A DNA stretch of 64,000 nucleotides from a virus: UHGV virus genome UHGV-0240527; one strand, given 5' to 3'. Positions 15,711 to 24,910 of the stretch are shown piece by piece. Every line of letters starts with the position of its first letter. Within the stretch, counting starts at the first letter, position 1. The notes below the pieces were generated by a model that searched no databases, had not been told where the DNA came from, and worked only from the letters and a program-made list of their open reading frames with translations. The position numbers were made by a program, and so were the translations under genes.

Positions 15711-17126
15711 ATGAGCGAATTATTTAAACATGCGCACCTTCATGCAGGTCGAACTGAAAATGGTGCTGTAAACCATACTTCATCAATGTCTGCTCTTGTA
15801 GACTTTTACAAAGCTGCTGGTTCAAGCCGTAGCAATGTAGAAATCTTACCAGACTTGTTCTACAAAGCTTTGCGTGAGGATGTTGATGTTGCAGTTCGTA
15901 TTTTGCTTCATATGCGAGATGTACGAGAAGGTATGGGTGAGCGTAAAGCCTTCAGAACTGTTTTGCTTCAAGCAATTGAAGATAAAGTTTTAGAGCCTAC
16001 ACAGGTTCTTCGCATTATGGATAAGATTGCAGAACTTGGTCGTTTTGATGACTTCAAAATCTTCGTGGGTACTTGTTTCGAGACAGATGCCTTCAAACAT
16101 TTAGAAGCAGCATTACTAGACCCTGCAACAGCAGGTTTGGCGGCTAAGTGGTTACCACGAGTCAAACCACGTCATAAGCAGTTTGTAAAACGTTTCTGCA
16201 AGTTTGCCAACTTGAGCGAGAAAGAGTACCGCACACTGTTATCTGCACTATCTGATACAGTTGAGCAAAAAATCTCTGCTAATGAGTTTGGCAAGATTGA
16301 CTACAGTAAGGTTCCCTCACTTGCTGCTGCACGTTACCAAAAACTGTTTAACCGTAAGGATGGAGAACGTTACAAAGCTTACATTGAGTCCTTATCAAAA
16401 GGTGAGGCTAAGATTAATGCTGGTGCTGTTTACCCATACGATGTGATTAAATCTGTCAAGCATGGTAATGCAGATGTTGCTAATGAGCAGTGGAAAGCAC
16501 TACCAAACTGGATGGCAGAAGGTGAAAACATCTTGTGTATGTCTGATGTATCAAGTTCAATGTCTTGGGTGAATTTTGGCTCCATTACTGCTCTGGATAT
16601 TGGTGTATCACTTGCCTTGTATGTAGCAGAACGCAATACAGGTTGCTTTAAGAATGAGTTGATGGTTTATTCAACAAACCCTCACTTCATCGAACTGAGT
16701 GGTGATTTACGAAACCGTCATCGTCAGGTGATGCGACACGTTGAATATGGCTCAACTAACTTACAAGCAGCTTTTGACCGCATTCTTGAGACAGGCAAAA
16801 GAAACAACTTGACTCAGAAAGATATGCCAAGTAAGCTTATCATCTTCTCCGATATGGAGTTTAATCAGGTTGATGGGGCTAACGGTCGTACAAACTTTGA
16901 AGCAATTCAGAGTAAGTACAAAAAAGCTGGATATGAGATGCCACAACTGGTATTCTGGTACTTAGCAAACCGTAATGGTACTTGCGAAGTATCTGTTAAG
17001 GATAACGGTGTAGCAATGGTATCAGGGTTCTCTCCAGCCACTTTAAAAGCTCTGCTTGGTGGTGAGAAGTTTGACCCAATCAGTGTAATGCTCAAAGCAG
17101 TAATGATTGACCGTTATATCTGGTAA
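15711..17126 (+). CDS. vWA-domain protein with Ro60/TROVE-like architecture (candidate RNA-binding protein)
   Basis: C-terminal MIDAS-like DxSxS (MSDVSSSMSW) and downstream FSDMEF; about 270-aa helical N-terminal region; family assignment is from architecture only. Confidence 0.45.
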   Translation: MSELFKHAHLHAGRTENGAVNHTSSMSALVDFYKAAGSSRSNVEILPDLFYKALREDVDVAVRILLHMRDVREGMGERKAFRTVLLQAIEDKVLEPTQVLRIMDKIAELGRFDDFKIFVGTCFETDAFKHLEAALLDPATAGLAAKWLPRVKPRHKQFVKRFCKFANLSEKEYRTLLSALSDTVEQKISANEFGKIDYSKVPSLAAARYQKLFNRKDGERYKAYIESLSKGEAKINAGAVYPYDVIKSVKHGNADVANEQWKALPNWMAEGENILCMSDVSSSMSWVNFGSITALDIGVSLALYVAERNTGCFKNELMVYSTNPHFIELSGDLRNRHRQVMRHVEYGSTNLQAAFDRILETGKRNNLTQKDMPSKLIIFSDMEFNQVDGANGRTNFEAIQSKYKKAGYEMPQLVFWYLANRNGTCEVSVKDNGVAMVSGFSPATLKALLGGEKFDPISVMLKAVMIDRYIW

Positions 17127-17144
17127 AAAGTTTTAAAAAGGGTA

Positions 17145-17173
17145 TTGACAATGTGTTTAATACCCTTTAATAT
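17145..17173 (+). promoter_or_regulatory. sigma70-type promoter (TTGACA, 17 bp, TAATAT) flanked by inverted repeat AAGGGTATT/AATACCCTT
   Basis: hexamers and spacing read directly; lies upstream of tRNA array. Confidence 0.5.
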
Positions 17174-17235
17174 GTTCTACATAGAAACGAAATGAGAGCT
17201 TTTCTAAGATACTGAAAAATATTTTAAAAAAGTTC

Positions 17236-17264
17236 TTGACAACCACTAAAAAATAATGTTAAAG
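17236..17264 (+). promoter_or_regulatory. candidate second promoter upstream of tRNA array (TTGACA, weak -10)
   Basis: TTGACA at 17236-17241; -10 ambiguous. Confidence 0.3.
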
Positions 17265-17291
17265 TGTTTACATAGAGTTTGAAAAGTTTAT

Positions 17292-17368
17292 CTCTGTTTA
17301 GCTCAGCTTGGTAGAGCGTTCCGTTTGGGGCGGTAAGGCCGGAGGTTCAAGTCCTCCAACAGAGACCA
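17292..17368 (+). tRNA. tRNA-Pro (anticodon UGG)
   Basis: manual cloverleaf: 7-bp acceptor CTCTGTT/AACAGAG, T-loop TTCAAGT, anticodon loop TTTGGGG, CCA encoded. Confidence 0.65.
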
Positions 17369-17375
17369 AATTAAT

Positions 17376-17453
17376 GTTCCAGTAGACAAAATGGTAAAGT
17401 CACCACTCTTTCAAAGTGGATATCTGAGGGTTCAAATCCCTTCTGGAACGCCA
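17376..17453 (+). tRNA. tRNA-Glu (anticodon UUC)
   Basis: 7-bp acceptor GTTCCAG/CTGGAAC, anticodon stem CCACT/AGTGG, loop CTTTCAA, CCA encoded. Confidence 0.7.
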
Positions 17454-17543
17454 GTTTTGACAGAAGACCAATTACAGCAAACTTAATCTACTCATCTGAA
17501 AGTTAATCGGACAAAGAAGATATTTGGTCTGGTCATTAAGAAT

Positions 17544-17620
17544 TGCGGGTATAGAGAAAGGGCGTCTCACATGTCTCATTAGCATGGTATCGGCAGGTTC
17601 GACTCCTGCACCCGCCTCCA
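17544..17620 (+). tRNA. tRNA with CAU anticodon (Met, initiator or Ile2); non-canonical features
   Basis: T-arm GCAGG/CCTGC and 6 of 7 acceptor pairs with 1:72 mismatch; anticodon loop CTCATTA; 3-nt 8/9 linker. Confidence 0.45.
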
Positions 17621-17703
17621 AATTTACAGAAGACCGTTTACAGCAATATTTATTAAATTTTTAGCGGAAAAATTGAAAGATACGGTCTGGTAATACTAAA
17701 CAT

Positions 17704-17780
17704 GGTTAGGAAGCACATAAGGTATGTGCGGTCGCCTGTTAAGCGAATGGCACAGGGTTCGAATCCCTGACTAACCGCCA
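17704..17780 (+). tRNA. tRNA-Asn (anticodon GUU)
   Basis: acceptor GGTTAGG, D-stem GCAC/GTGC, anticodon loop CTGTTAA, T-loop TTCGAAT, CCA encoded. Confidence 0.7.
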
Positions 17781-17849
17781 AATTTAGGAGAGAAGTGATT
17801 GCTCACCGATTTGTAAGGTGCAAGTCCTTAGCCTGAATAGAAATTAAAT

Positions 17850-17937
17850 GTGTCGTTATCCCGTAGATGGTAGCGGTGGGGACTGTAAATCCCTTGTCAT
17901 TGAGACTCGGTAGGTTCGACTCCTACACGGCACACCA
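17850..17937 (+). tRNA. tRNA-Tyr (anticodon GUA), long variable arm
   Basis: acceptor GTGTCGT/ACGGCAC, anticodon stem GGGGA/TCCCT, loop CTGTAAA, 88 nt, CCA encoded. Confidence 0.7.
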
Positions 17938-17942
17938 ATAAA

Positions 17943-18019
17943 GGCTATGTAGTTTAACTGGAGAAAATACTCCCCTGTCACGGGAGATGATGTGAGTTCA
18001 AGTCTCATCGTAGCCGCCA
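17943..18019 (+). tRNA. tRNA-Asp (anticodon GUC)
   Basis: acceptor GGCTATG/CGTAGCC, anticodon stem CTCCC/GGGAG, loop CTGTCAC, CCA encoded. Confidence 0.75.
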
Positions 18020-18448
18020 ATTTTGAGAGGGCTGTTTAGCCCATCCCTTAAAGAGTTCTTACGAGTATTCTTTAAGGGAGCAGAAGACCAAATACAGCAA
18101 GAATGTATGAAATTTCAAGCCAATTTAATTTTGAAAATTTAAAACTTGGTCTGGCTCAACAAATTTACAGAAGGCCGTTTACAGCAAAACTTAAACAATC
18201 TATTTCTCCGGTAAAGAAAAGGCGAAGGTTCGATTCCTTCACTCGGCAGATGTCGAGTTGGTGTAATGGTAGCACTTAAGATGATAAACAACGGTCTGGT
18301 AATTACCTTTGTAGATAAGTTATTAAGCTTACTTGTGAGTATGCGACCACAAAGGGTGAATGGGTAAATTCTAGATTTAAACCCAAAAAGGCACATCGCT
18401 ACAGACCTTAAGCAAGTCTGGGTAGCTTATCTACAAAGATAATTTAAT

Positions 18449-18524
18449 GGAAGTGTAGCAGAATGGTGATGCGGCAGACTTTTAATCTGACAGGCGATGG
18501 GTTCGAATCCCTCCACTTCTACCA
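18449..18524 (+). tRNA. tRNA-Lys (anticodon UUU)
   Basis: acceptor GGAAGTG/CACTTCT, anticodon loop CTTTTAA; T-stem imperfect; paralog of the CUU Lys tRNA. Confidence 0.6.
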
Positions 18525-18528
18525 ATAT

Positions 18529-18605
18529 GGTTCAGTCGCAGATAAGGTAATGCAAGGGTCTCATAAGCCCTATGAATGTGGGTTCGATTCCCATCTGAAC
18601 CTCCA
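18529..18605 (+). tRNA. tRNA with CAU anticodon (Met or Ile2)
   Basis: perfect 7-bp acceptor GGTTCAG/CTGAACC, anticodon stem AGGGT/GCCCT, loop CTCATAA, CCA encoded. Confidence 0.7.
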
Positions 18606-18606
18606 A

Positions 18607-18682
18607 GCTGGTATAGTTAAGAAGGTTATAACACTCCCCTGATAAGGGAACATCGGTGGTTCGATTCCACCTACCAGTACCA
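18607..18682 (+). tRNA. tRNA-Ile (anticodon GAU)
   Basis: acceptor GCTGGTA/TACCAGT, D-stem GTTA/TAAC, anticodon loop CTGATAA, T-arm GGTGG/CCACC, CCA encoded. Confidence 0.75.
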
Positions 18683-18697
18683 ATTTCAATAAAGTTG

Positions 18698-18726
18698 TTG
18701 ACATTGAGATGTGACTACTTTATAGT
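18698..18726 (+). promoter_or_regulatory. sigma70-type promoter inside tRNA array (TTGACA, 17 bp, TATAGT)
   Basis: hexamers and spacing read directly. Confidence 0.55.
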
Positions 18727-18930
18727 AACCTTAGTTTTCGTTGCGTAGCGTCTATTTTGCAAATTTAAAATAAATGCAAACGACAATGTTTTTCTGGCAG
18801 TAGCTTGATAGGCTAAACACCAGTGAGGTCTTCCAATCCCTCATCAAAGAATTTGGCGTACTCGCCCACGGTATGATTAATAAGGTGGGCATCTTTAAGG
18901 GCTTTCTAAGAGAGTCTTTAAAGATAATTA

Positions 18931-19012
18931 CGGGGCGTATCTCAGCGGTCTTCTAAACCGCCGTTAACCGAGTAAGTGGAGTATGCGGGTTCGAGTCCTG
19001 CCGCCTCGACCA
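18931..19012 (+). ncRNA. tRNA-like element: perfect acceptor stem and T-arm but no canonical D-arm; internal hairpin with loop CTTCTAA (UCU)
   Basis: 7-bp acceptor CGGGGCG/CGCCTCG, T-arm GCGGG-TTCGAGT-CCTGC, CCA encoded; body cannot be folded into a standard cloverleaf. Confidence 0.4.
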
Positions 19013-19026
19013 ATTTTGGAGAAATC

Positions 19027-19374
19027 ATGAAAACTTGTATTAGGTGCAAACTTAGCAAGGATGAAAATGATTTCTACATGAAAGATGGTAGGAGAACTCA
19101 TTCATACTGTAAAAAGTGTGTTAATGAGCAAACCATAGAAAGACAAAGAGCACTTAAACTCTTAGCTATTGAGTACAAAGGTGGGGTTTGTCATGATTGT
19201 GGTAAGAAGTATCATCCAGCAGTGTATGACTTCCATCATTTGAATCCTTCAGATAAAGATTTTAACATTGGTCATAGGAAAAGCCTTAAGTTCTCTCAAG
19301 AACTAAAAGATGAACTTGACAAATGTGTTTTGCTATGTTCAAATTGCCATAGGGTAAGACATGCAAAATATTAG
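19027..19374 (+). CDS. HNH family homing endonuclease
   Basis: motifs CxxC..CxxC, DFHHLNPSDKDFNIG and CSNCHRVRH typical of HNH nucleases; start moved to ATG with GGAG RBS (track start is an upstream GTG inside the tRNA-like element). Confidence 0.7.
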   Translation: MKTCIRCKLSKDENDFYMKDGRRTHSYCKKCVNEQTIERQRALKLLAIEYKGGVCHDCGKKYHPAVYDFHHLNPSDKDFNIGHRKSLKFSQELKDELDKCVLLCSNCHRVRHAKY

Positions 19375-19511
19375 TTAGCAGATTACTTAGACGACCTTAG
19401 CGGGTCTTCCTGTAGGGAGGTGGTCTGTATCTCATGTTTTCCAGAACATGTAAATAATCTGAGAAGGGGCTTTACAGTGTTGAGATAATACGGTAAGCTT
19501 CGAATTATAGT

Positions 19512-19594
19512 ATGGGACGATGTTAAGACTCTAAGGCATGAGCAACGGCTTCCAACACCGTTTCAAAGGGGTTCAACTCCTCCGTCCCATGCCA
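19512..19594 (+). ncRNA. tRNA-like element with aberrant anticodon arm (9-nt loop CTTCCAACA containing UCC); possible degenerate tRNA-Gly paralog
   Basis: perfect 7-bp acceptor ATGGGAC/GTCCCAT and T-arm with CCA, but non-canonical D region and loop size. Confidence 0.4.
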
Positions 19595-19607
19595 AAGTCT
19601 TATTAGG

Positions 19608-19695
19608 GGTAGGTAGCGGCTAATGGTAGCCAAACTGTCTTGAAAACAGTTGCCACTGTAGAGATACGGTGAGGGTTCGACTCCTTTACTTACCG
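19608..19695 (+). tRNA. tRNA-Ser (anticodon UGA), class II
   Basis: acceptor GGTAGGT/ACTTACC, anticodon stem ACTGT/ACAGT, loop CTTGAAA, long variable arm, G73; CCA not encoded. Confidence 0.65.
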
Positions 19696-19852
19696 CCTAA
19701 TAAGATTTAAAGCCAAGCTTCATTCGGATGTTGCTTTGGTATCCCTCGTGTATTGTCGTACACACTGATAAAACACCTAGTAGGTGTCACGGAGAAGAGA
19801 TAATATCAAGCTCTCCAAAGGTTCTAGTCACCGGATTAAACAAGACTATGCA

Positions 19853-19875
19853 AAGACCTATTTAGGTCTTTTTAG
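19853..19875 (+). terminator. putative intrinsic terminator within tRNA array
   Basis: AAGACCTA..TAGGTCTT hairpin followed by TTTT. Confidence 0.45.
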
Positions 19876-19952
19876 AGGGCTTCTAAGGTTATTACAGCTT
19901 GTTGTGGAACCTTGTTGCTTAGGTTCTTAGAAGTTCTCTAAAAAGATTTAAT

Positions 19953-20029
19953 GCACCTATAGCCCAACTGGTAGAGGCAGCAGACTTAGAATCTGCTCAG
20001 TGTGAGTTCGAATCTCTCTAGGTGTACCA
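19953..20029 (+). tRNA. tRNA-Leu (anticodon UAG) with short variable arm
   Basis: acceptor GCACCTA/TAGGTGT, anticodon stem GCAGA/TCTGC, loop CTTAGAA, A73, 77 nt, CCA encoded. Confidence 0.6.
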
Positions 20030-20036
20030 AATTAAT

Positions 20037-20112
20037 GCAGGTGTAGCAGAATGGTTATGCGGCTGACTCTTAATCAGTAAGACGATGGGTTCAATTCCCT
20101 CCACCTGTACCA
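20037..20112 (+). tRNA. tRNA-Lys (anticodon CUU)
   Basis: acceptor GCAGGTG/CACCTGT, anticodon stem GCTGA/TCAGT, loop CTCTTAA, CCA encoded. Confidence 0.65.
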
Positions 20113-20118
20113 AACATT

Positions 20119-20194
20119 GGGGATGTAGTTTACATGGTTAAAACATAAGTTTTGCAAACTTAAGTACAGGGTTCAATTCCCTGCTTCTCCACCA
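20119..20194 (+). tRNA. tRNA-Ala (anticodon UGC)
   Basis: G3:U70 wobble pair present in acceptor; D-stem GTTT/AAAC; anticodon stem TAAGT/ACTTA, loop TTTGCAA; CCA encoded. Confidence 0.7.
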
Positions 20195-20200
20195 ATTAGT

Positions 20201-20275
20201 GCATCCATAGTTTAAACGGGAAAATTACAGTCTTCCAAACTGAGGTTGAGGGTTCGATTCCCTCTGGATGCTCCA
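20201..20275 (+). tRNA. tRNA-Gly (anticodon UCC)
   Basis: perfect acceptor GCATCCA/TGGATGC, T-arm GAGGG/CCCTC, anticodon loop CTTCCAA, CCA encoded. Confidence 0.7.
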
Positions 20276-20281
20276 AACAAT

Positions 20282-20358
20282 GCTGCTTTCGTATAATTGG
20301 CTATTACACATCCCTTGTAAGGATGGAAATGCAGGTTCGAGTCCTGTGAGCAGCACCA
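20282..20358 (+). tRNA. tRNA-Thr (anticodon UGU)
   Basis: acceptor GCTGCTT/GAGCAGC, anticodon stem CATCC/GGATG, loop CTTGTAA, CCA encoded. Confidence 0.75.
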
Positions 20359-20454
20359 ATTCAGAGGTCAAGTGAAAGACCGCTTTGAGTCAACTGAAGA
20401 CCGTAACAAATACCACGGAGTTGAGTTAGCGGCACAACTTCAGACCTCTTTCAT

Positions 20455-20529
20455 ACTCGCTTAGTTTATATGGTAAAACATCACCATTACAAGATGAAGA
20501 AAAAGGTTCAAGTCCTTTAGTGAGTACCA
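20455..20529 (+). tRNA. tRNA-Val (anticodon UAC)
   Basis: acceptor ACTCGCT/AGTGAGT, D-stem GTTT/AAAC, anticodon loop ATTACAA, T-arm AAAGG/CCTTT, CCA encoded. Confidence 0.7.
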
Positions 20530-20530
20530 T

Positions 20531-20608
20531 GTTCCAGTATCCCAATTGGCAGAGGATGCAAGCTCAAACCTTGTATTAGTGACGGTTCGAATCCGTCTTG
20601 GAACACCA
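20531..20608 (+). tRNA. tRNA-Leu (anticodon CAA) with short variable arm
   Basis: acceptor GTTCCAG/TTGGAAC, anticodon stem GCAAG/CTTGT, loop CTCAAAC, A73, 78 nt, CCA encoded. Confidence 0.55.
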
Positions 20609-20613
20609 ATTTT

Positions 20614-20686
20614 GCAGGATTAGTTCAAATGGAAAGAGCAACAGTCTACGAAGCTGTTAATAGGGGTTCGAATCCCTTATCCTGCG
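20614..20686 (+). tRNA. tRNA-Arg (anticodon ACG)
   Basis: perfect acceptor GCAGGAT/ATCCTGC, D-stem GTTC/GAGC, anticodon loop CTACGAA; CCA not encoded. Confidence 0.7.
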
Positions 20687-20706
20687 CTAGATAAAAAGGT
20701 GATACT

Positions 20707-20949
20707 ATGCAAACATTAACAGTAGTTGAACATGAAAACTGTGAGAGTATTGAGTTTGTCAGGGTCATTGGTGTTGAACACCACATTTTCTTAAAAGTGG
20801 GATACTTATGTGACCCCGCTAGAGTAGAAAGATTTATACGTGATTGTTTTGGTGGTAGACATCTGAAGAGTGTTATTTTTGAGACAGTTTTACCAGAAGG
20901 TTTAGAAACGAATAATAACATTTACCTCCTTACGAGGATTAGACAATGA
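20707..20949 (+). CDS. hypothetical protein (embedded in tRNA array)
   Basis: ORF track; AAAGGTGA RBS. Confidence 0.45.
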   Translation: MQTLTVVEHENCESIEFVRVIGVEHHIFLKVGYLCDPARVERFIRDCFGGRHLKSVIFETVLPEGLETNNNIYLLTRIRQ

Positions 20950-21503
20950 GATACTTAAAGTATGCTTCATGGATTTTCTTAGCTTTGTTAGAGCCATTTG
21001 CAGCAATCTTAGCAGTTATCTTAGCACCTTTTGTAGTTCCATTCTACAGTGAGAAGAAAGGACACTTACCTTTCGGGTTCAGATGGATGGAGACATATGA
21101 CAACCCAATTGATGGTGATGAAGGTCACGTTAAAAGATGGGCTAATATTAGATGGATTGGTAAGCTGGGTGTCTACATGCAGAGAGTTGGATGGCTCTGG
21201 AGAAACAAAGCTTATAACTTCTCTTACCATGTATTAGGAAGAGATGTAAAAGATGTTACTAAGTGGAAAGGTAATATCAACGTAAGTTCTGACCCCGAAG
21301 ATAATCAGACAGGTTATCTCCTAATGTGGAACAGTAATGCTTGGGGATTATTCGCTTTTATCCCATCAATTAAAATCTTTGGTAAACAATTTTACTGGAG
21401 AATTTATATTGGATGGAAACTAAAAAGTGTTGTCCCAGAAGAAAGAGCATTCTCAAGGGAAAGAGTTATGTTGGCATTCTTTATTCATCCACTGAGAAAG
21501 TAA
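20946..21503 (+). CDS. hypothetical membrane protein (embedded in tRNA array)
   Basis: ORF track; hydrophobic N-terminus WIFLALLEPFAAILAVILAPFVVPF; start overlaps upstream stop. Confidence 0.5.
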   Translation: MRYLKYASWIFLALLEPFAAILAVILAPFVVPFYSEKKGHLPFGFRWMETYDNPIDGDEGHVKRWANIRWIGKLGVYMQRVGWLWRNKAYNFSYHVLGRDVKDVTKWKGNINVSSDPEDNQTGYLLMWNSNAWGLFAFIPSIKIFGKQFYWRIYIGWKLKSVVPEERAFSRERVMLAFFIHPLRK

Positions 21504-21511
21504 AGATTTAA

Positions 21512-21587
21512 AGGGGATTAGTTTACAAGGTTAAAACCTCGGTCTTTGAAATCGAAGAAGTTGGTTCAATTCCAACATCCCCCGCCA
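21512..21587 (+). tRNA. tRNA-Gln (anticodon UUG)
   Basis: unpaired 1:72, G73, D-stem GTTT/AAAC, anticodon stem TCGGT/ATCGA, loop CTTTGAA, CCA encoded. Confidence 0.7.
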
Positions 21588-21589
21588 AT

Positions 21590-21668
21590 GCTCCATTACT
21601 CCAATTGGCAGAGAGGCCAGACTTAAAATCTGTGTTATGTATCGGTTCGAATCCGATATGGAGTACCA
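21590..21668 (+). tRNA. tRNA-Leu (anticodon UAA) with short variable arm
   Basis: acceptor GCTCCAT/ATGGAGT, anticodon loop CTTAAAA, T-arm ATCGG/CCGAT, A73, 79 nt, CCA encoded. Confidence 0.55.
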
Positions 21669-21673
21669 AATTT

Positions 21674-21749
21674 AGCGGTATAGCATAACTGGCAATGCAG
21701 CAGCCTCTGAAGCTGTCCTATTAAGGTTCAAATCCTTATGCCGCTGCCA
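21674..21749 (+). tRNA. tRNA-Gln (anticodon CUG)
   Basis: acceptor AGCGGTA/TGCCGCT, D-stem GCAT/ATGC, anticodon stem GCAGC/GCTGT, loop CTCTGAA, G73, CCA encoded. Confidence 0.7.
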
Positions 21750-21780
21750 CTTCTAAGGATTCTTGCGAGAGTCCTTAAAT

Positions 21781-21856
21781 GTGGCCTTATCATAAATGGT
21801 AATGACCCATGCTGTGAACATGGTCTATACGGGTTCAAATCCCGTAGGTCACCCCA
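21781..21856 (+). tRNA. tRNA-His (anticodon GUG)
   Basis: acceptor GTGGCCT/AGGTCAC, D-stem TCAT/ATGA, anticodon stem CCATG/CATGG, loop CTGTGAA, C73, CCA encoded. Confidence 0.7.
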
Positions 21857-21861
21857 ATTTA

Positions 21862-21936
21862 TAGTCCAAGTAGCTTATATGGTTAAAGCGCGTGTCTGAA
21901 AAACATGAGAAGAGGGTTCAAATCCCACTGGACTAC
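21862..21936 (+). tRNA. tRNA-Phe (anticodon GAA)
   Basis: perfect acceptor TAGTCCA/TGGACTA, anticodon stem CGTGT/ACATG, loop CTGAAAA; 3' terminus ambiguous. Confidence 0.6.
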
Positions 21937-21954
21937 CAATTTCAAAGGTGCTTA

Positions 21955-22689
21955 ATGAAAGAGATGACAGAACAAGGTAAGGAGATTTTTAATCTCTTAA
22001 AAACCGGTAAAGGGTTCTCTAACCCACTGATTACTGGTGCAGCAGTTCTCGGTGGAACCGTAGCTGCTTCTACATCACTTGTAAGCTCTATTAGTTCTGT
22101 AACAGACCCTACAATGAAGGAGAAACTTGTTGCTGCTGGACTTACAACAGTCCTTCTAAACAGCTTTACAACAAGCCTTACAAGCACTACAGCAACTACT
22201 AAAACTCTGACAGACTACGGTCAAAAGTCTATTGATGAGTTTTCATCACGTATGCAGGTAGCAAAGGGATACTCCAATGTTATGGGTGCAGCAGGAGAAC
22301 AAGTTGGTTGTACACCATTCAGTGGTATTATGGGTGTTGCTACAGAGTATGGTCAAAAAGCTATTGACATGATGAACAGTACACTGGATAGTGTTAATGG
22401 TGTATTAAGTGACTTACAAGATGCTATTGATAAGGGTCTTGATACTGTTTCTGATTTAGCTAATCAGGCTGTTAGTAAGATTAATGAAGGTATTTCAAAG
22501 ATTACAGCTTATGCAGATGAAGTTGTGCAGATGATTGAAGAAGAAGCTGCCCTTATTGCAGAGTACCTTAAAACGAATATCAATGGGTTCTTAGCAGGTA
22601 TCTTACCAGACTGGTTTGATGATGCTTGTAAAACTGGTGTAATTGACACTATTGCAACACCAGAAATGAAGAACGCATTACAGAAATAA
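21955..22689 (+). CDS. hypothetical Ser/Thr-rich protein (embedded in tRNA array)
   Basis: ORF track frame; start moved to ATG 21955 after AAAGGTG RBS because the track start overlaps tRNA-Phe. Confidence 0.5.
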   Translation: MKEMTEQGKEIFNLLKTGKGFSNPLITGAAVLGGTVAASTSLVSSISSVTDPTMKEKLVAAGLTTVLLNSFTTSLTSTTATTKTLTDYGQKSIDEFSSRMQVAKGYSNVMGAAGEQVGCTPFSGIMGVATEYGQKAIDMMNSTLDSVNGVLSDLQDAIDKGLDTVSDLANQAVSKINEGISKITAYADEVVQMIEEEAALIAEYLKTNINGFLAGILPDWFDDACKTGVIDTIATPEMKNALQK

Positions 22690-22691
22690 AT

Positions 22692-22784
22692 GGAAGATTA
22701 ACCCTAAAAGGTAAGGGAGCAGTTTGCTAAACTGCCAGTAGCTGAGAAATCGGTGTACCAGTTCAAGTCTGGTATCTTCCTCCA
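22692..22784 (+). tRNA. tRNA-Ser (anticodon GCU), class II
   Basis: perfect acceptor GGAAGAT/ATCTTCC, anticodon stem GCAGT/ACTGC, loop TTGCTAA, about 21-nt variable arm, CCA encoded. Confidence 0.7.
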
Positions 22785-22788
22785 ATTT

Positions 22789-22864
22789 GAATCCGTGACA
22801 GAAATGGCTATGTGCCTGTCTGCAAAACAGGTTTATAAGGGTTCGAGTCCCTTCGGATTCTCCA
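22789..22864 (+). tRNA. tRNA-Cys (anticodon GCA)
   Basis: perfect acceptor GAATCCG/CGGATTC, anticodon stem CCTGT/ACAGG, loop CTGCAAA, U73, CCA encoded. Confidence 0.75.
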
Positions 22865-22901
22865 AGTTATTTTACTCTCTCTCAATTAAAATAATAATAA
22901 T

Positions 22902-22961
22902 GCCCTGCTATAAGTATTCTTCCTTTCGCTACCGAAGAGTATTTTTAGACAGGGCTTTTTT
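22902..22961 (+). terminator. intrinsic terminator ending the tRNA array
   Basis: GCCCTG..CAGGGC stem with internal hairpin, followed by TTTTTT. Confidence 0.5.
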
Positions 22962-23026
22962 ACAGAGTTATACTTTATAGGAAGACTTATACAGTATGTC
23001 TCTGACGTACATTGTGGTTTCTCCTT

Positions 23027-23050
23027 GACGGTCTCTGTGCCGTCTTTTTT
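23027..23050 (+). terminator. intrinsic terminator
   Basis: GACGG..CCGTC stem followed by TTTTTT. Confidence 0.6.
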
Positions 23051-23086
23051 AAGGGGAAACATGGTTAACTATTTGGAGAAAACATA

Positions 23087-23287
23087 ATGAGCGAGACCGT
23101 TTATAAAGAACTTTATGAAGCTAATAAAAAGCTAGAATTTATGCAGAATACTATCATGGCAATTGCAGACAGATTGTCTGTAGCAACAGGTATTGATATT
23201 AAAGAAGCATCTATGGATGCACTTCTTGATGCTGTTGATGCAAAGTTCGAAGTTAAGAAAGAAGAGACTGCTACAGACTCTGAATAA
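23087..23287 (+). CDS. hypothetical small acidic protein upstream of terminase
   Basis: ORF track; GGAG RBS. Confidence 0.5.
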   Translation: MSETVYKELYEANKKLEFMQNTIMAIADRLSVATGIDIKEASMDALLDAVDAKFEVKKEETATDSE

Positions 23288-23308
23288 TTCTATTTGCGGA
23301 GGTGCTTA

Positions 23309-24910
23309 ATGGACTTAAATGCTGTTAAGCAGAAGCGAGTGGAAGATGTTAGGAAAGTCCTAGCTGGAGAGTTGGGGCTTTCTGATGAAGTAAAAGAAAT
23401 TATCAAATCATTCGGTAAAGACCCCTCTAAATTCCTTCCAACTCAAATTCTGACTTTATTAAGATACACACCAGACCAAGTTAGACTTATCTTCAAATTG
23501 ATGACTGATAAGAATTATGTAGCCCCTCAGCCGGGTTCTCAAGAGGTCTTTTTAAATACTAATGCTGACTTGGTTCTCTATGGTGGTGCTGCTGGTGCTG
23601 GTAAAACTGCTGCATTGTTAATGGATTCTTTAAGGTTTATTGAAGACCCTAACTATAATGCTGTATATTTCCGTCGAAATACAACACAGCTACAAGGTGG
23701 TTTATGGCCTGCTGCAAAGAAACTATTTGGTAAGTTTGGTGGGGTTCCTCACGAGCAGAAGATGACTATCACATTCCCTTCTGGGGCAACTATCAAGTTT
23801 ACTTATTTAGAACTTGAAAAACACGCTGAAGGTCATCAGGGTATTGAATACTCAGCTATTTACTTTGACGAAGGTACACACTTCTCTGCTTCACAGATTT
23901 CATACCTACAAACACGTCTGCGTTCTGGTGCTGAAGGTGATTCATACATGAAGATTTCTATGAACCCAGACAGAGACCACTTTATTTACGATTGGGTAGA
24001 ACCTTTCTTAGATGAAGAAGGTTATCCAGACCCTGAAAAGTGTGGTCGTATTCGTTGGTATGTAATGAATGACGGTGTGATGGTTTCTGATTGGGAGAGA
24101 GACAAGATTCTTGAAATGTTCCCTCTTGAGATTCCTCAAACATACACCTTTATCTCTGGTACGATTGATGATAACCCAATCCTTGACTTCTTAGAGCCTA
24201 AGTACCGTGGTAAGTTGGAAAACAACACCCCTGTAAACGTTGCAAGACTTCGTTTCGGTAACTGGAAGGCTCGTGCAGAAGGTTCAAACTATTGGCAAAG
24301 ACAATGGTGTGAGATTGTTGATTCACTCCCAGAAGATGTATTCGATGTTAGAGCATGGGACTTAGCAGCAACTTTACCATCTGAGATTAACCCTAATCCA
24401 GACTGGACAGCAGGTGTTAAGATGGGTAAATCTAAAAAAGACGGTTGCTATTATATCATTGATGTAGTAAGATTTAGAGATAGACCCTCTGGAGTCGAAA
24501 CACAAATTAATTTGACTGCTGAAAGTGACGGTAAGCGAACTGGTATTTTTATCCCTCAAGACCCAGGCGCTGCTGGTAAATCCTACGCAACATCCCTCAT
24601 CAGGAAACTTGCAGAGAAAGGTTATCGTGCAAGAGCTAAACCAACAAATAAAGATAAAGTTACCCGATTTGCGGGGTTTTCTGCTGCTTCTGAAGCCGGA
24701 CTTGTAAAAGTCTTGAGAGGTAGTTGGAATGAAGCTTATTTTCAAGAGCTTGAAGGCTTTTGTGGTGATGGTAAAACTAAAGATGACCAAGTGGATGCTA
24801 CCAGTGATGCTTTCAACAGTCTTAACGAAGTTAAATTATTCAAGCCACCATCAATGGGTGCTCACACAGACTTAGTGAGAGGAAACCCATATGAGGGGCT
24901 TAGACGTTGA
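23309..24910 (+). CDS. terminase large subunit
   Basis: Walker A-like LYGGAAGAGKTAAL near N-terminus; position directly before the portal gene; start moved to ATG with GGAGG RBS. Confidence 0.8.
   Translation: MDLNAVKQKRVEDVRKVLAGELGLSDEVKEIIKSFGKDPSKFLPTQILTLLRYTPDQVRLIFKLMTDKNYVAPQPGSQEVFLNTNADLVLYGGAAGAGKTAALLMDSLRFIEDPNYNAVYFRRNTTQLQGGLWPAAKKLFGKFGGVPHEQKMTITFPSGATIKFTYLELEKHAEGHQGIEYSAIYFDEGTHFSASQISYLQTRLRSGAEGDSYMKISMNPDRDHFIYDWVEPFLDEEGYPDPEKCGRIRWYVMNDGVMVSDWERDKILEMFPLEIPQTYTFISGTIDDNPILDFLEPKYRGKLENNTPVNVARLRFGNWKARAEGSNYWQRQWCEIVDSLPEDVFDVRAWDLAATLPSEINPNPDWTAGVKMGKSKKDGCYYIIDVVRFRDRPSGVETQINLTAESDGKRTGIFIPQDPGAAGKSYATSLIRKLAEKGYRARAKPTNKDKVTRFAGFSAASEAGLVKVLRGSWNEAYFQELEGFCGDGKTKDDQVDATSDAFNSLNEVKLFKPPSMGAHTDLVRGNPYEGLRR

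Follow-up and report, generated by a model that had tools for sequence, protein, structure and literature searches.

Y-RNA-like elements among the tRNA genes of a Felixounavirus, candidate RNA partners of a phage Ro60-like protein

The DNA analyzed here (the window, 64,000 nucleotides of the virus genome UHGV-0240527) belongs to a Felixounavirus, and its element region is 97.9% identical to that of Felix O1. On its + strand, a gene coding for a 471-amino-acid protein is followed by a cluster of 25 tRNA genes (17292-22864, all on the + strand, as called by ARAGORN), and four structured elements lie in the spacers of this cluster (Table 1). The gene ends 332 nt ahead of element 1, and the elements begin 332-1039 nt downstream of it, on the same (+) strand. 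A first-pass annotation of these spacers had described stems with compensatory base changes and had offered processing signals or independent small RNAs as their function. We consider it likely that the four elements are non-coding RNAs of a Y-RNA-like kind and act as partners of the Ro60-like protein that the phage itself encodes in the upstream gene. This reading is built on the fold of the elements and its covariation, on the co-occurrence of gene and element in distant phages and on the YrlA-like order of element 4, together with the Ro60 fold predicted for the neighboring protein. The upstream gene, the permuted core of element 4 and the Y RNA interpretation all go beyond the first-pass annotation.

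A CAGAAGRCCNNWTACAGCAA pattern was found four times in the window, always on the + strand (at 17461, 17627, 18081 and 18168), with 0.04 copies expected from shuffled sequences, and every copy had a complementary NNGGTCT-G segment downstream plus a 4-nt outer complement. Elements 1 and 2 occupy the Glu/Met and Met/Asn tRNA spacers, so that the placement between tRNAs described for all of them is strictly true of these two, and elements 3 and 4 lie in tandem within the 429-nt Asp/Lys spacer. The four elements share a minimum free energy (MFE) fold, which consists of a 4-bp outer helix (P1; UGAC/GUCA, UUAC/GUAA, GAGC/GCUC and UUAC/GUAA in elements 1 to 4, respectively), an asymmetric loop (5′ AGA versus 3′ G) and a 7-bp inner helix (P2; AGRCCNN/NNGGUCU). 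The 5′ strand of P2 is followed by the single-stranded UUACAGCAA (WUA-CAGCAA), a variable middle, an A-rich run and the 3′ strand of P2. Elements 1-3 have a small hairpin as this middle, in many cases with 5 bp and a 7-nt loop, as in element 1. The elements are 70-138 nt long, and their paired strands lie 44-112 nt apart, instead of the 50-120 nt first estimated. The TTTACA or TTGACA start that had been attributed to the spacers is present in three of the elements, the exception being element 3, which is preceded by two hairpins.

Table 1. Coordinates of the upstream gene, the promoters and the four elements with their parts.
Feature	Position	Strand	P1	AGA	P2	Bulged G	CAGCAA	Basis and remarks
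Ro60-like protein gene, 471 aa	15711..17126	+						alpha-helical ring then vWA domain, DVSGSM MIDAS motif (metal ion-dependent adhesion site)
Two strong sigma-70-like promoters	17145-17173, 17236-17265 (region 17145..17265)	+						promoter scan, 10/12 matches each
Element 1, short form	17458..17535	+	17458-61/17532-35	17462-64	17465-71/17524-30	17531	17472-80 (UUA-CAGCAA)	covariance model R1, 74.8 bits; 4 nt after tRNA-Glu, 8 nt before tRNA-Met
Element 2, short form	17624..17693	+	17624-27/17690-93	17628-30	17631-37/17682-88	17689	17641-46	R1, 75.9 bits; between tRNA-Met and tRNA-Asn
Element 3, short form	18078..18157	+	18078-81/18154-57 (GAGC/GCUC)	18082-84	18085-91/18146-52	18153	18095-18100	R1, 75.3 bits
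Element 4, long YrlA-like form	18165..18302	+	18165-68/18299-302	18169-71	18172-78/18291-97	18298	18182-87	MFE fold, partial Rfam tRNA match, long-element alignment
Element 4, anticodon/V-like arm	18203-19							
Element 4, T arm	18224-40							GAAGG-UUCGAUU-CCUUC
Element 4, acceptor-like stem	18241-58							
Element 4, D arm	18261-75							

We then analyzed the covariation of the two helices in an alignment of 28 distinct short elements, orthologous and paralogous, from Ounavirinae-like phages (MAFFT, ungapped ends). RNAalifold predicted precisely P1 and P2 de novo, which supports the conserved, covarying stems of the first-pass annotation; 98.4% of the cells paired, versus 75.6% in column shuffles and 23-44% when the partners were slid by 1-3 columns, and double-sided changes were observed in 10 of the 11 pairs, with none of 500 shuffles attaining any of the observed measures. 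Pairing was a requirement of the descriptor by which the more distant members had been gathered, so that the percentage of paired cells is inflated; the variety of pair types at syntenic loci is free of this effect. In the descriptor search, the four elements were syntenic in most of the Felixounavirus and Mooglevirus loci examined, and diverged copies were present in remoter Ounavirinae-like contigs, in which the neighboring protein is 48-63% identical. In the diverged copies P2 reads AGAGCAC, AGGACAC, AGACUAU, GGACUGU, AGUAUCU or AGAAUCU, each time with its exact complement, and a compensatory change of P1 from UUAC/GUAA to UUGC/GCAA was found among the orthologues of element 2. The compensatory changes proper affect, in P2, the two distal pairs (AA/UU versus GU/AC) and, beyond it, the whole length of the outer helix (UGAC/GUCA, UUAC/GUAA and GAGC/GCUC); the pairing of AGGCCGT with ACGGTCT, which had been counted with them, is a G·U wobble and not a double change. 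The TTGACA/TTTACA hexamers are one strand of the covarying outer helix, and not promoter boxes.

A covariance model (R1), trained on Ounavirinae only, was built from the same alignment. When the whole window was searched with the filters off, its matches were limited to elements 1-3 (75-76 bits) and, with 21.8 bits, to the 5′ part of element 4, since a model of short elements is unable to span the long insertion of the latter. R1 also found the elements of relatives: in phage Bas63, the four of them (73-76 bits) lie in unannotated spacers, and all the annotated tRNAs are ordinary.

The long interior of element 4 contains the arms of a tRNA cloverleaf in a circularly permuted order, as in YrlA. 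ARAGORN found no tRNA gene in canonical order in the spacers, and the YrlA order, i.e., (V), T arm, acceptor-like stem-loop and D arm inside a closing stem, was found in element 4 alone (18203-18275). Its acceptor-like stem has 7 bp and is closed by an AGAU loop, and the loop of its D arm contains GG. When the pieces of the core were rejoined by hand in the canonical order, with a junction base and a 3′ ACCA tail added, ARAGORN reported a 74-nt tRNA-Thr(GGU)-like cloverleaf, whereas no call was made on the native order. The Rfam tRNA model gave a partial match of 22 bits (18191-18241), which covers the anticodon arm to the T arm only. Furthermore, 21 long elements from enterobacterial to mycobacterial phages could be aligned around GGUUCGAWUCC and a D-arm-like UAGCUCAG-UGGUAGAGC. 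On the MAFFT alignment of these elements, RNAalifold recovered P2 and the T arm with abundant compensatory changes; the acceptor and D arms, which are variable in length and were misaligned, were not recovered on it.

The 471-amino-acid protein matches Pfam DUF2828 and DUF7788 as well as PHROG 850, annotated as 'RNA-binding protein', and the MIDAS columns (DVSGS, DxSxS) are invariant. When its AlphaFold model (predicted local distance difference test 85, predicted template modeling score 0.86) was compared with the PDB using Foldseek, the top 11 matches were all full-length Ro60/TROVE proteins (about 520-550 columns, template modeling scores 0.50-0.64, probability 1.0), among them those of Xenopus, human, Deinococcus and the Thermus phage phiLo. 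The protein is therefore predicted by its modeled structure to have the Ro60/TROVE fold, in which a ring of HEAT repeats is joined to a vWA domain. Homologues were detected by tblastn in about 690 sequenced phage genomes, which include the therapeutic and biocontrol phages Felix O1 and P100. The orthologue in Bas63 is gp130 (bas63_0130, at the same position), which was described as Ro60-like and as countering the Ppl defence in the PhageMaP preprint (bioRxiv 10.1101/2024.10.10.617714), where the presence of Y RNAs within the annotated tRNA genes was no more than a guess.

In order to follow gene and element outside this lineage, 75 viral contigs with a homologue of 39-48% identity were fetched, and the 74 most distant of them (L011-L084) were searched. 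The exact Felix-type descriptor (P1, AGA, P2 ... G, P1′) had no match in distant loci, and the wider family came to light because the search was re-anchored on CAGCAA. The strict descriptor of the resulting module (a perfect 7-bp helix with at most one G·U pair, its 5′ strand followed by N3-CAGCAA and its 3′ strand by G) identified 87 elements in 50 of the 74 loci on the strand of the gene, and 5 elements on the opposite one. Of the 87, 62 were no more than 500 nt away from the gene, which corresponds to 0.86 per kb versus 0.02 per kb beyond 2 kb. With a looser descriptor there were 106 versus 12 matches by strand, with about 10 expected from shuffles. The anchor itself was in the helix-plus-G context in 87 of its 383 occurrences, and the 59 other permutations of the hexamer averaged 4.5 (maximum 12). 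A consensus of 123 distinct modules reads A/U-G-R-N-U-N-N, N-U-W, CAGCAA ... A-rich ... N-N-A-N-Y-C-U/A, G, and in them the helix's first base and its last change jointly from A-U to U-A. R1 pointed in the same direction, with 37 of 37 matches on the strand of the gene at E<0.1 (81 loci, distant contigs included) and 20 of 20 in a second set; phages of Klebsiella, Listeria, Staphylococcus and Campylobacter were matched at E<0.01, and mycobacteriophage LeBron with an E of 0.04. The module flanks the gene in Campylobacter phage CP8, Enterococcus phage EFDG1, Listeria phage P100plus, Staphylococcus phage S-CoN_Ph1, Klebsiella phage KP13-26 and mycobacteriophages LeBron and Snenia.

The module lies in the 5′ leader of the DUF2828 gene in 7 or more of the distant loci, with its end 3-15 nt ahead of the Shine-Dalgarno sequence or ATG. 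These leader modules are minimal, with 33-45 nt and nearly no insert (1757-1800 in L014, 2852-2895 in L019, 5947-5991 in L011, and others). Such a geometry is typical of autoregulation, and it suggests that in some phages the translation of the Ro60-like protein is controlled by the protein itself. It could then be argued that the module is purely a cis-acting operator, at which the protein binds the precursor or its own mRNA to affect processing, stability or translation, with no role in trans. We regard this as unlikely. The R1 scan of the window revealed no module before the Ro60-like gene, the module is present in multiple copies with elaborate effector domains, and an operator would have no need of a tRNA-like core that is conserved from enterobacterial to mycobacterial phages. 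The operator and the Y-RNA-like partner overlap as explanations because the binding of the protein to the module is implied by both.

The same distribution bears on the possibility that the elements serve the tRNA precursor as punctuation or as processing signals, i.e., stabilizers or recognition sites of RNase E, RNase III or RNase P with no role after cleavage. In the window they are separated from the flanking tRNAs by only 3-10 nt, inside one promoter-to-end transcription unit, and in one distant locus (L031) an element exactly fills the gap between two tRNAs. However, the module tracks the Ro60-like gene and not the tRNAs: of the 47 loci without a tRNA, 23 carry it at most 1 kb from the gene, it occurs in the 5′ leader of the gene, and in Staphylococcus and mycobacterial phages tandem arrays of it directly follow the gene without an adjacent tRNA. 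In addition, most tRNA junctions of the window are spacers of 5-9 nt that do without such an element, and separate long perfect hairpins are the likelier RNase III sites. A processing role of this kind is thus improbable, and the elements are not mere tRNA-processing signals, nor are they promoters. With the module this close to the gene in tRNA-free loci, and often in its leader, the 'independent small RNAs' of the first-pass annotation fit much better than the 'processing signals' that it had offered alongside.

That the elements are decayed tRNA genes, functionless duplicated spacer DNA or promoters is very improbable: three of the four do start with TTGACA or TTTACA as if with a -35 box, a weak 9/12 promoter-like match lies at 17623 and element 4 does carry tRNA-like arms, but the hexamers are a P1 strand that covaries with a partner 60-130 nt downstream (element 3 has GGAGCA), promoter-like matches in the element region are at the chance level (10 versus 7.8 expected from shuffles), the arms of element 4 are permuted and conserved with compensatory changes across genera, and a decaying sequence would not have kept one and the same module in phages of four bacterial phyla. 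As sigma-70 promoters (-35 and -10 hexamers 16-18 nt apart) the elements were rejected, since the 9/12 match inside element 2 was the only one and its hexamer covaries as an RNA helix.

Several observations weigh against the Y-RNA-like interpretation. In the broad set of distant loci the pairing of P2 was required by the descriptor and is true by construction, so that the support from this set rests on the strand bias, the proximity to the gene and the anchor control. All the loci were selected for the gene, and sequence without it was sampled as the flanks and the rest of the window. Moreover, the strict module is missing in 24 of the 74 distant loci and in Vibrio phage ValKK3. As regards the protein, its sequence similarity to Ro60 is undetectable: neither phmmer nor a family-profile search against the PDB sequences found a Ro60, and Pfam TROVE had no match. 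The partnership with RNA is accordingly extrapolated from the fold and the genomic context. As regards the RNAs, the Rfam YrlA model (RF02553) had no match to element 4 at E<=10 (18150-18320), and the canonical Ro-contact motifs (GNCGAAN0-1G and CGAA, as defined in PMC4201824 and PMC12135203) were not found in the elements, which carry CAGAAG instead; their contact region reads (U/G)(G/U/A)(A/G)C-AGA-AG, and the animal motif GGUCCGA is not present either. Apart from the partial tRNA match in element 4, no Rfam family was assigned to the elements in scans of 16500-23500 (E<=1) and 18150-18320 (E<=10).

As judged from the promoter scan, a joint precursor of tRNAs and elements would be driven by the promoters at 17145 and 17236, and no terminator-like site was found on the + strand from the promoter region to 18682; another strong sigma-70 site lies downstream, at 18698. 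From this precursor the elements would be excised by the enzymes of tRNA maturation, with RNase P acting at the 5′ end of the downstream tRNA and 3′ trimming after the upstream tRNA, and the products would be discrete RNAs of about 70-140 nt with their ends closed by P1. The recognition site of the protein would comprise P1, the AGA/G loop, the 7-bp P2 (which starts with AG and ends with CU), the bulged G and the single-stranded UUACAGCAA, the co-occurrence of gene and module being what points to direct binding of the Ro60-like protein to the P2/bulged-G/CAGCAA part. The variable middle could then act as the effector, as the hairpin with a 7-nt loop in elements 1-3 and as the permuted tRNA-like cloverleaf in element 4. 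By analogy with Ro60-Y RNA particles, the resulting ribonucleoprotein (RNP) might tether or gate RNA-processing enzymes, or mimic tRNA, during infection, and, more speculatively, the variable domains might recruit or decoy RNA enzymes, leading to counter-defence or tRNA surveillance. The context in favor of such a role is the Ppl phenotype of gp130, the frequent tRNA-array and tmRNA neighbors of the gene and the RtcB-type ligase near the P100plus gene; by the same analogy, the activity of the RNP plausibly underlies the anti-defence effect reported for gp130.

Among these neighbors, a phage-encoded transfer-messenger RNA (tmRNA) gene lies a few kb from the DUF2828 gene in five contigs (L030, L035, L038, L040 and L050), and in Listeria phage P100plus (L094, 5309-6455) the gene is 1.3 kb upstream of an RtcB-type RNA ligase, a neighborhood that recalls the bacterial rsr-yrlBA-rtcBA operon.

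Other features of the tRNA cluster were observed on the + strand of the window. At 18931-19009 there is an Rfam tRNA match of 31.7 bits (gathering score 29) without an ARAGORN call, and the orthologous position is annotated as tRNA-Arg(UCU) in Bas63 and in Shigella phage Sf17, so that the window probably has 26 tRNAs rather than 25. The spacer between element 4 and tRNA-Lys (18300-18448) folds with a closing stem of about 18 bp (MFE -44 kcal/mol, z -5.3) and encloses a mini hairpin, CAGAC-CUUAAGCAA-GUCUG, which echoes the module; this fold is kept in Felixounaviruses, and minus-strand 'hypothetical' open reading frames (ORFs) overlap it (FelixO1 ORF94; Bas63 0137/0138). Three long near-perfect hairpins with similar arms, CUUUAAAG/CUUUAAGG, were found at 18043-18077, 18891-18926 and 19862-19951 (fold z -3.4 to -4.0), each directly upstream of a tRNA or of element 3, and the tRNA precursor might be processed at them by an RNase III-type enzyme. 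The region 19510-19592 has a tRNA-like fold, with a 10-bp closing stem ending in ...GCCA, a hairpin resembling a T arm and another stem, of 5 bp, whose loop has 9 nt, and it received no call from ARAGORN or Rfam; it may be an aberrant tRNA or another mimic. Within the cluster, a 132-amino-acid ORF with a weak HNH endonuclease match (18976-19374) is probably a homing endonuclease, and a similar zinc-finger/HNH ORF occupies the equivalent place in a distant relative (L010, 9321-9680). The spacer between tRNA-Thr and tRNA-Val (20359-20454) had also been listed as a related element. It shares GAAGACCGU but has neither CAGCAA nor the 3′ partner, and R1 was silent on it at E<=10; it was therefore dropped as a family member, with no demonstrable relation. 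It has a stable fold of its own (-30 kcal/mol, z -4.0), and BLAST finds it only in close Felixounaviruses (96-98% identity).

In GenBank records the elements are without annotation or are overlapped by small minus-strand 'hypothetical' ORFs. Tiny 'hypothetical protein' coding sequences coincide with module elements or with opposite-strand tRNAs in S-CoN_Ph1 (L095, 3971-4318) and in Felix O1 (L001, ORF91/92/94), and these are probably annotation artefacts.

Y-like RNAs beside phage Ro60 genes are already known (PMC4201824, PMC12135203). In Rfam 15 and the searchable literature, coverage of which is partial, we found no account of the Felixounavirus elements, of their embedding in a tRNA operon, of the short forms or of the DUF2828-wide CAGCAA module, and an earlier description is possible; for a link of DUF2828, Felixounavirus or CAGCAA to Y RNA or Ro60, the same literature gave only the PhageMaP preprint. 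We advance more tentatively, at somewhat less than even confidence, a broader proposal: that the 'AG-helix, NUW, CAGCAA ... helix-CU, G' module is a hitherto overlooked signal that Ro60-like proteins of the DUF2828 branch recognize almost universally and that it marks a large unannotated family of phage Y-like RNAs, with short and permuted-tRNA forms, in Felix O1-like, Listeria P100-like, staphylococcal, enterococcal, Campylobacter, Klebsiella and mycobacterial phages; that these RNAs are matured by the tRNA machinery in tRNA-rich phages; and that their RNP with the protein carries the anti-defence or tRNA-surveillance activity of gp130.

Ro60-Y RNA particles have been studied thoroughly in animals and in a small number of bacteria, and the role of the phage homologues is only now being explored. 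For gp130 there is a genetic phenotype but no known RNA partner, and the present analysis names four specific candidate RNAs and a compact, mutable module. The module, confirmed only in the sample examined, flags candidate partners for the homologous protein across phages, and it could seed a new RNA family model. The Y-RNA-like reading would also explain the frequent placement of this protein family beside phage tRNA arrays, and it would remove several spurious small ORF annotations.

Structured small stable RNAs of unknown function, namely the 'species 1/2' RNAs of T4 (rnaC, rnaD) and those of the T5 tRNA region, are co-transcribed with phage tRNA clusters and freed by tRNA-processing enzymes. 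Our elements would resemble them in these respects, and T4 and T5 are not known to encode a DUF2828/Ro60-like protein. Permuted tRNA genes exist in the red alga Cyanidioschyzon merolae, where the circularly permuted precursor is circularized and re-cut into a normal tRNA. Element 4 resembles these genes in that the 3′ half of its cloverleaf comes first and the 5′ half second, with a short loop linking the acceptor ends. In contrast to them, the permuted core of element 4 is locked inside a closing helix, as it is in YrlA, and has a non-canonical C33, which argues for a mimic rather than a tRNA precursor. With metazoan Y RNAs the elements share a length of 70-140 nt, a terminal helix whose conserved asymmetric bulge is presumed to be the site of the protein, and an interior that varies, but there is no sequence similarity, the promoter type and 3′ end formation are different, and the metazoan forms have no tRNA-like domain.

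The closest known counterparts are the Y RNAs of bacteria and their phages, whose genes adjoin that of Ro60 and which include tRNA-like domains (PMC4201824). As expected of Y RNAs, the elements have an end stem with an internal loop (P1, AGA/G, P2) that covaries, their 70-138 nt compare with about 80-130 nt, and they lie next to a Ro60-fold gene on the same strand, as in 50 of the 74 distant loci. Phage phiLo Ro60 binds adjacent Y-like RNAs and the host polynucleotide phosphorylase (PNPase), and this and the Ro60-Y RNA-PNPase of Deinococcus and Salmonella are the precedents for the proposed recruitment of RNA enzymes (PMC12135203). YrlB of S. Typhimurium and Yrl1/Yrl2 of phiLo are short Y RNAs without a tRNA-like domain (PMC12135203), which elements 1-3 resemble in the stem/internal loop/stem, the adjacent Ro60 gene and the presence of several copies beside a longer form; they differ in that the bulge of the former contains CGAA, whereas elements 1-3 have the AG...CU helix, the bulged G and CAGCAA. 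Binding was shown for the phiLo RNAs, and elements 1-3 are candidate ligands by fold and gene context.

YrlA consists of an outer stem, a loop, a second stem, YUAY, the V hairpin, the T arm, the closed acceptor and the D arm (PMC4201824). The elements differ from it in carrying CAGAAG in place of GNCGAAN0-1G and an invariant single-stranded CAGCAA that is missing from the RF02553 consensus, in having a DUF2828/DUF7788 rather than a TROVE protein as the candidate partner and in sitting in a tRNA array. On the other hand, they lie beside a Ro60-type gene on the same strand, their ends pair as an outer stem, an internal loop and a 7-bp stem followed by UUAC for YUAY, and in element 4 the interior order of V hairpin, T arm, closed acceptor and D arm is a point-for-point match. 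RF02553 itself, as a positive control, matched directly downstream of the homologous genes annotated as 'Ro-like RNA-binding protein' in LeBron (39.8 bits) and Snenia (39.3 bits), with an E of about 1e-5, as well as in a distant contig (L083, 38.9 bits), all below the gathering score of 69 bits. The LeBron match is nested in a module-bearing long element, that of Snenia overlaps one to within 1 nt, and in L083 weak YrlA matches fall on two module-bearing long elements with an offset of 5-21 nt. In both LeBron and Snenia a pair of short module elements accompanies the long one, at its flanks, which is the same layout of one long plus several short elements that was found in the window.

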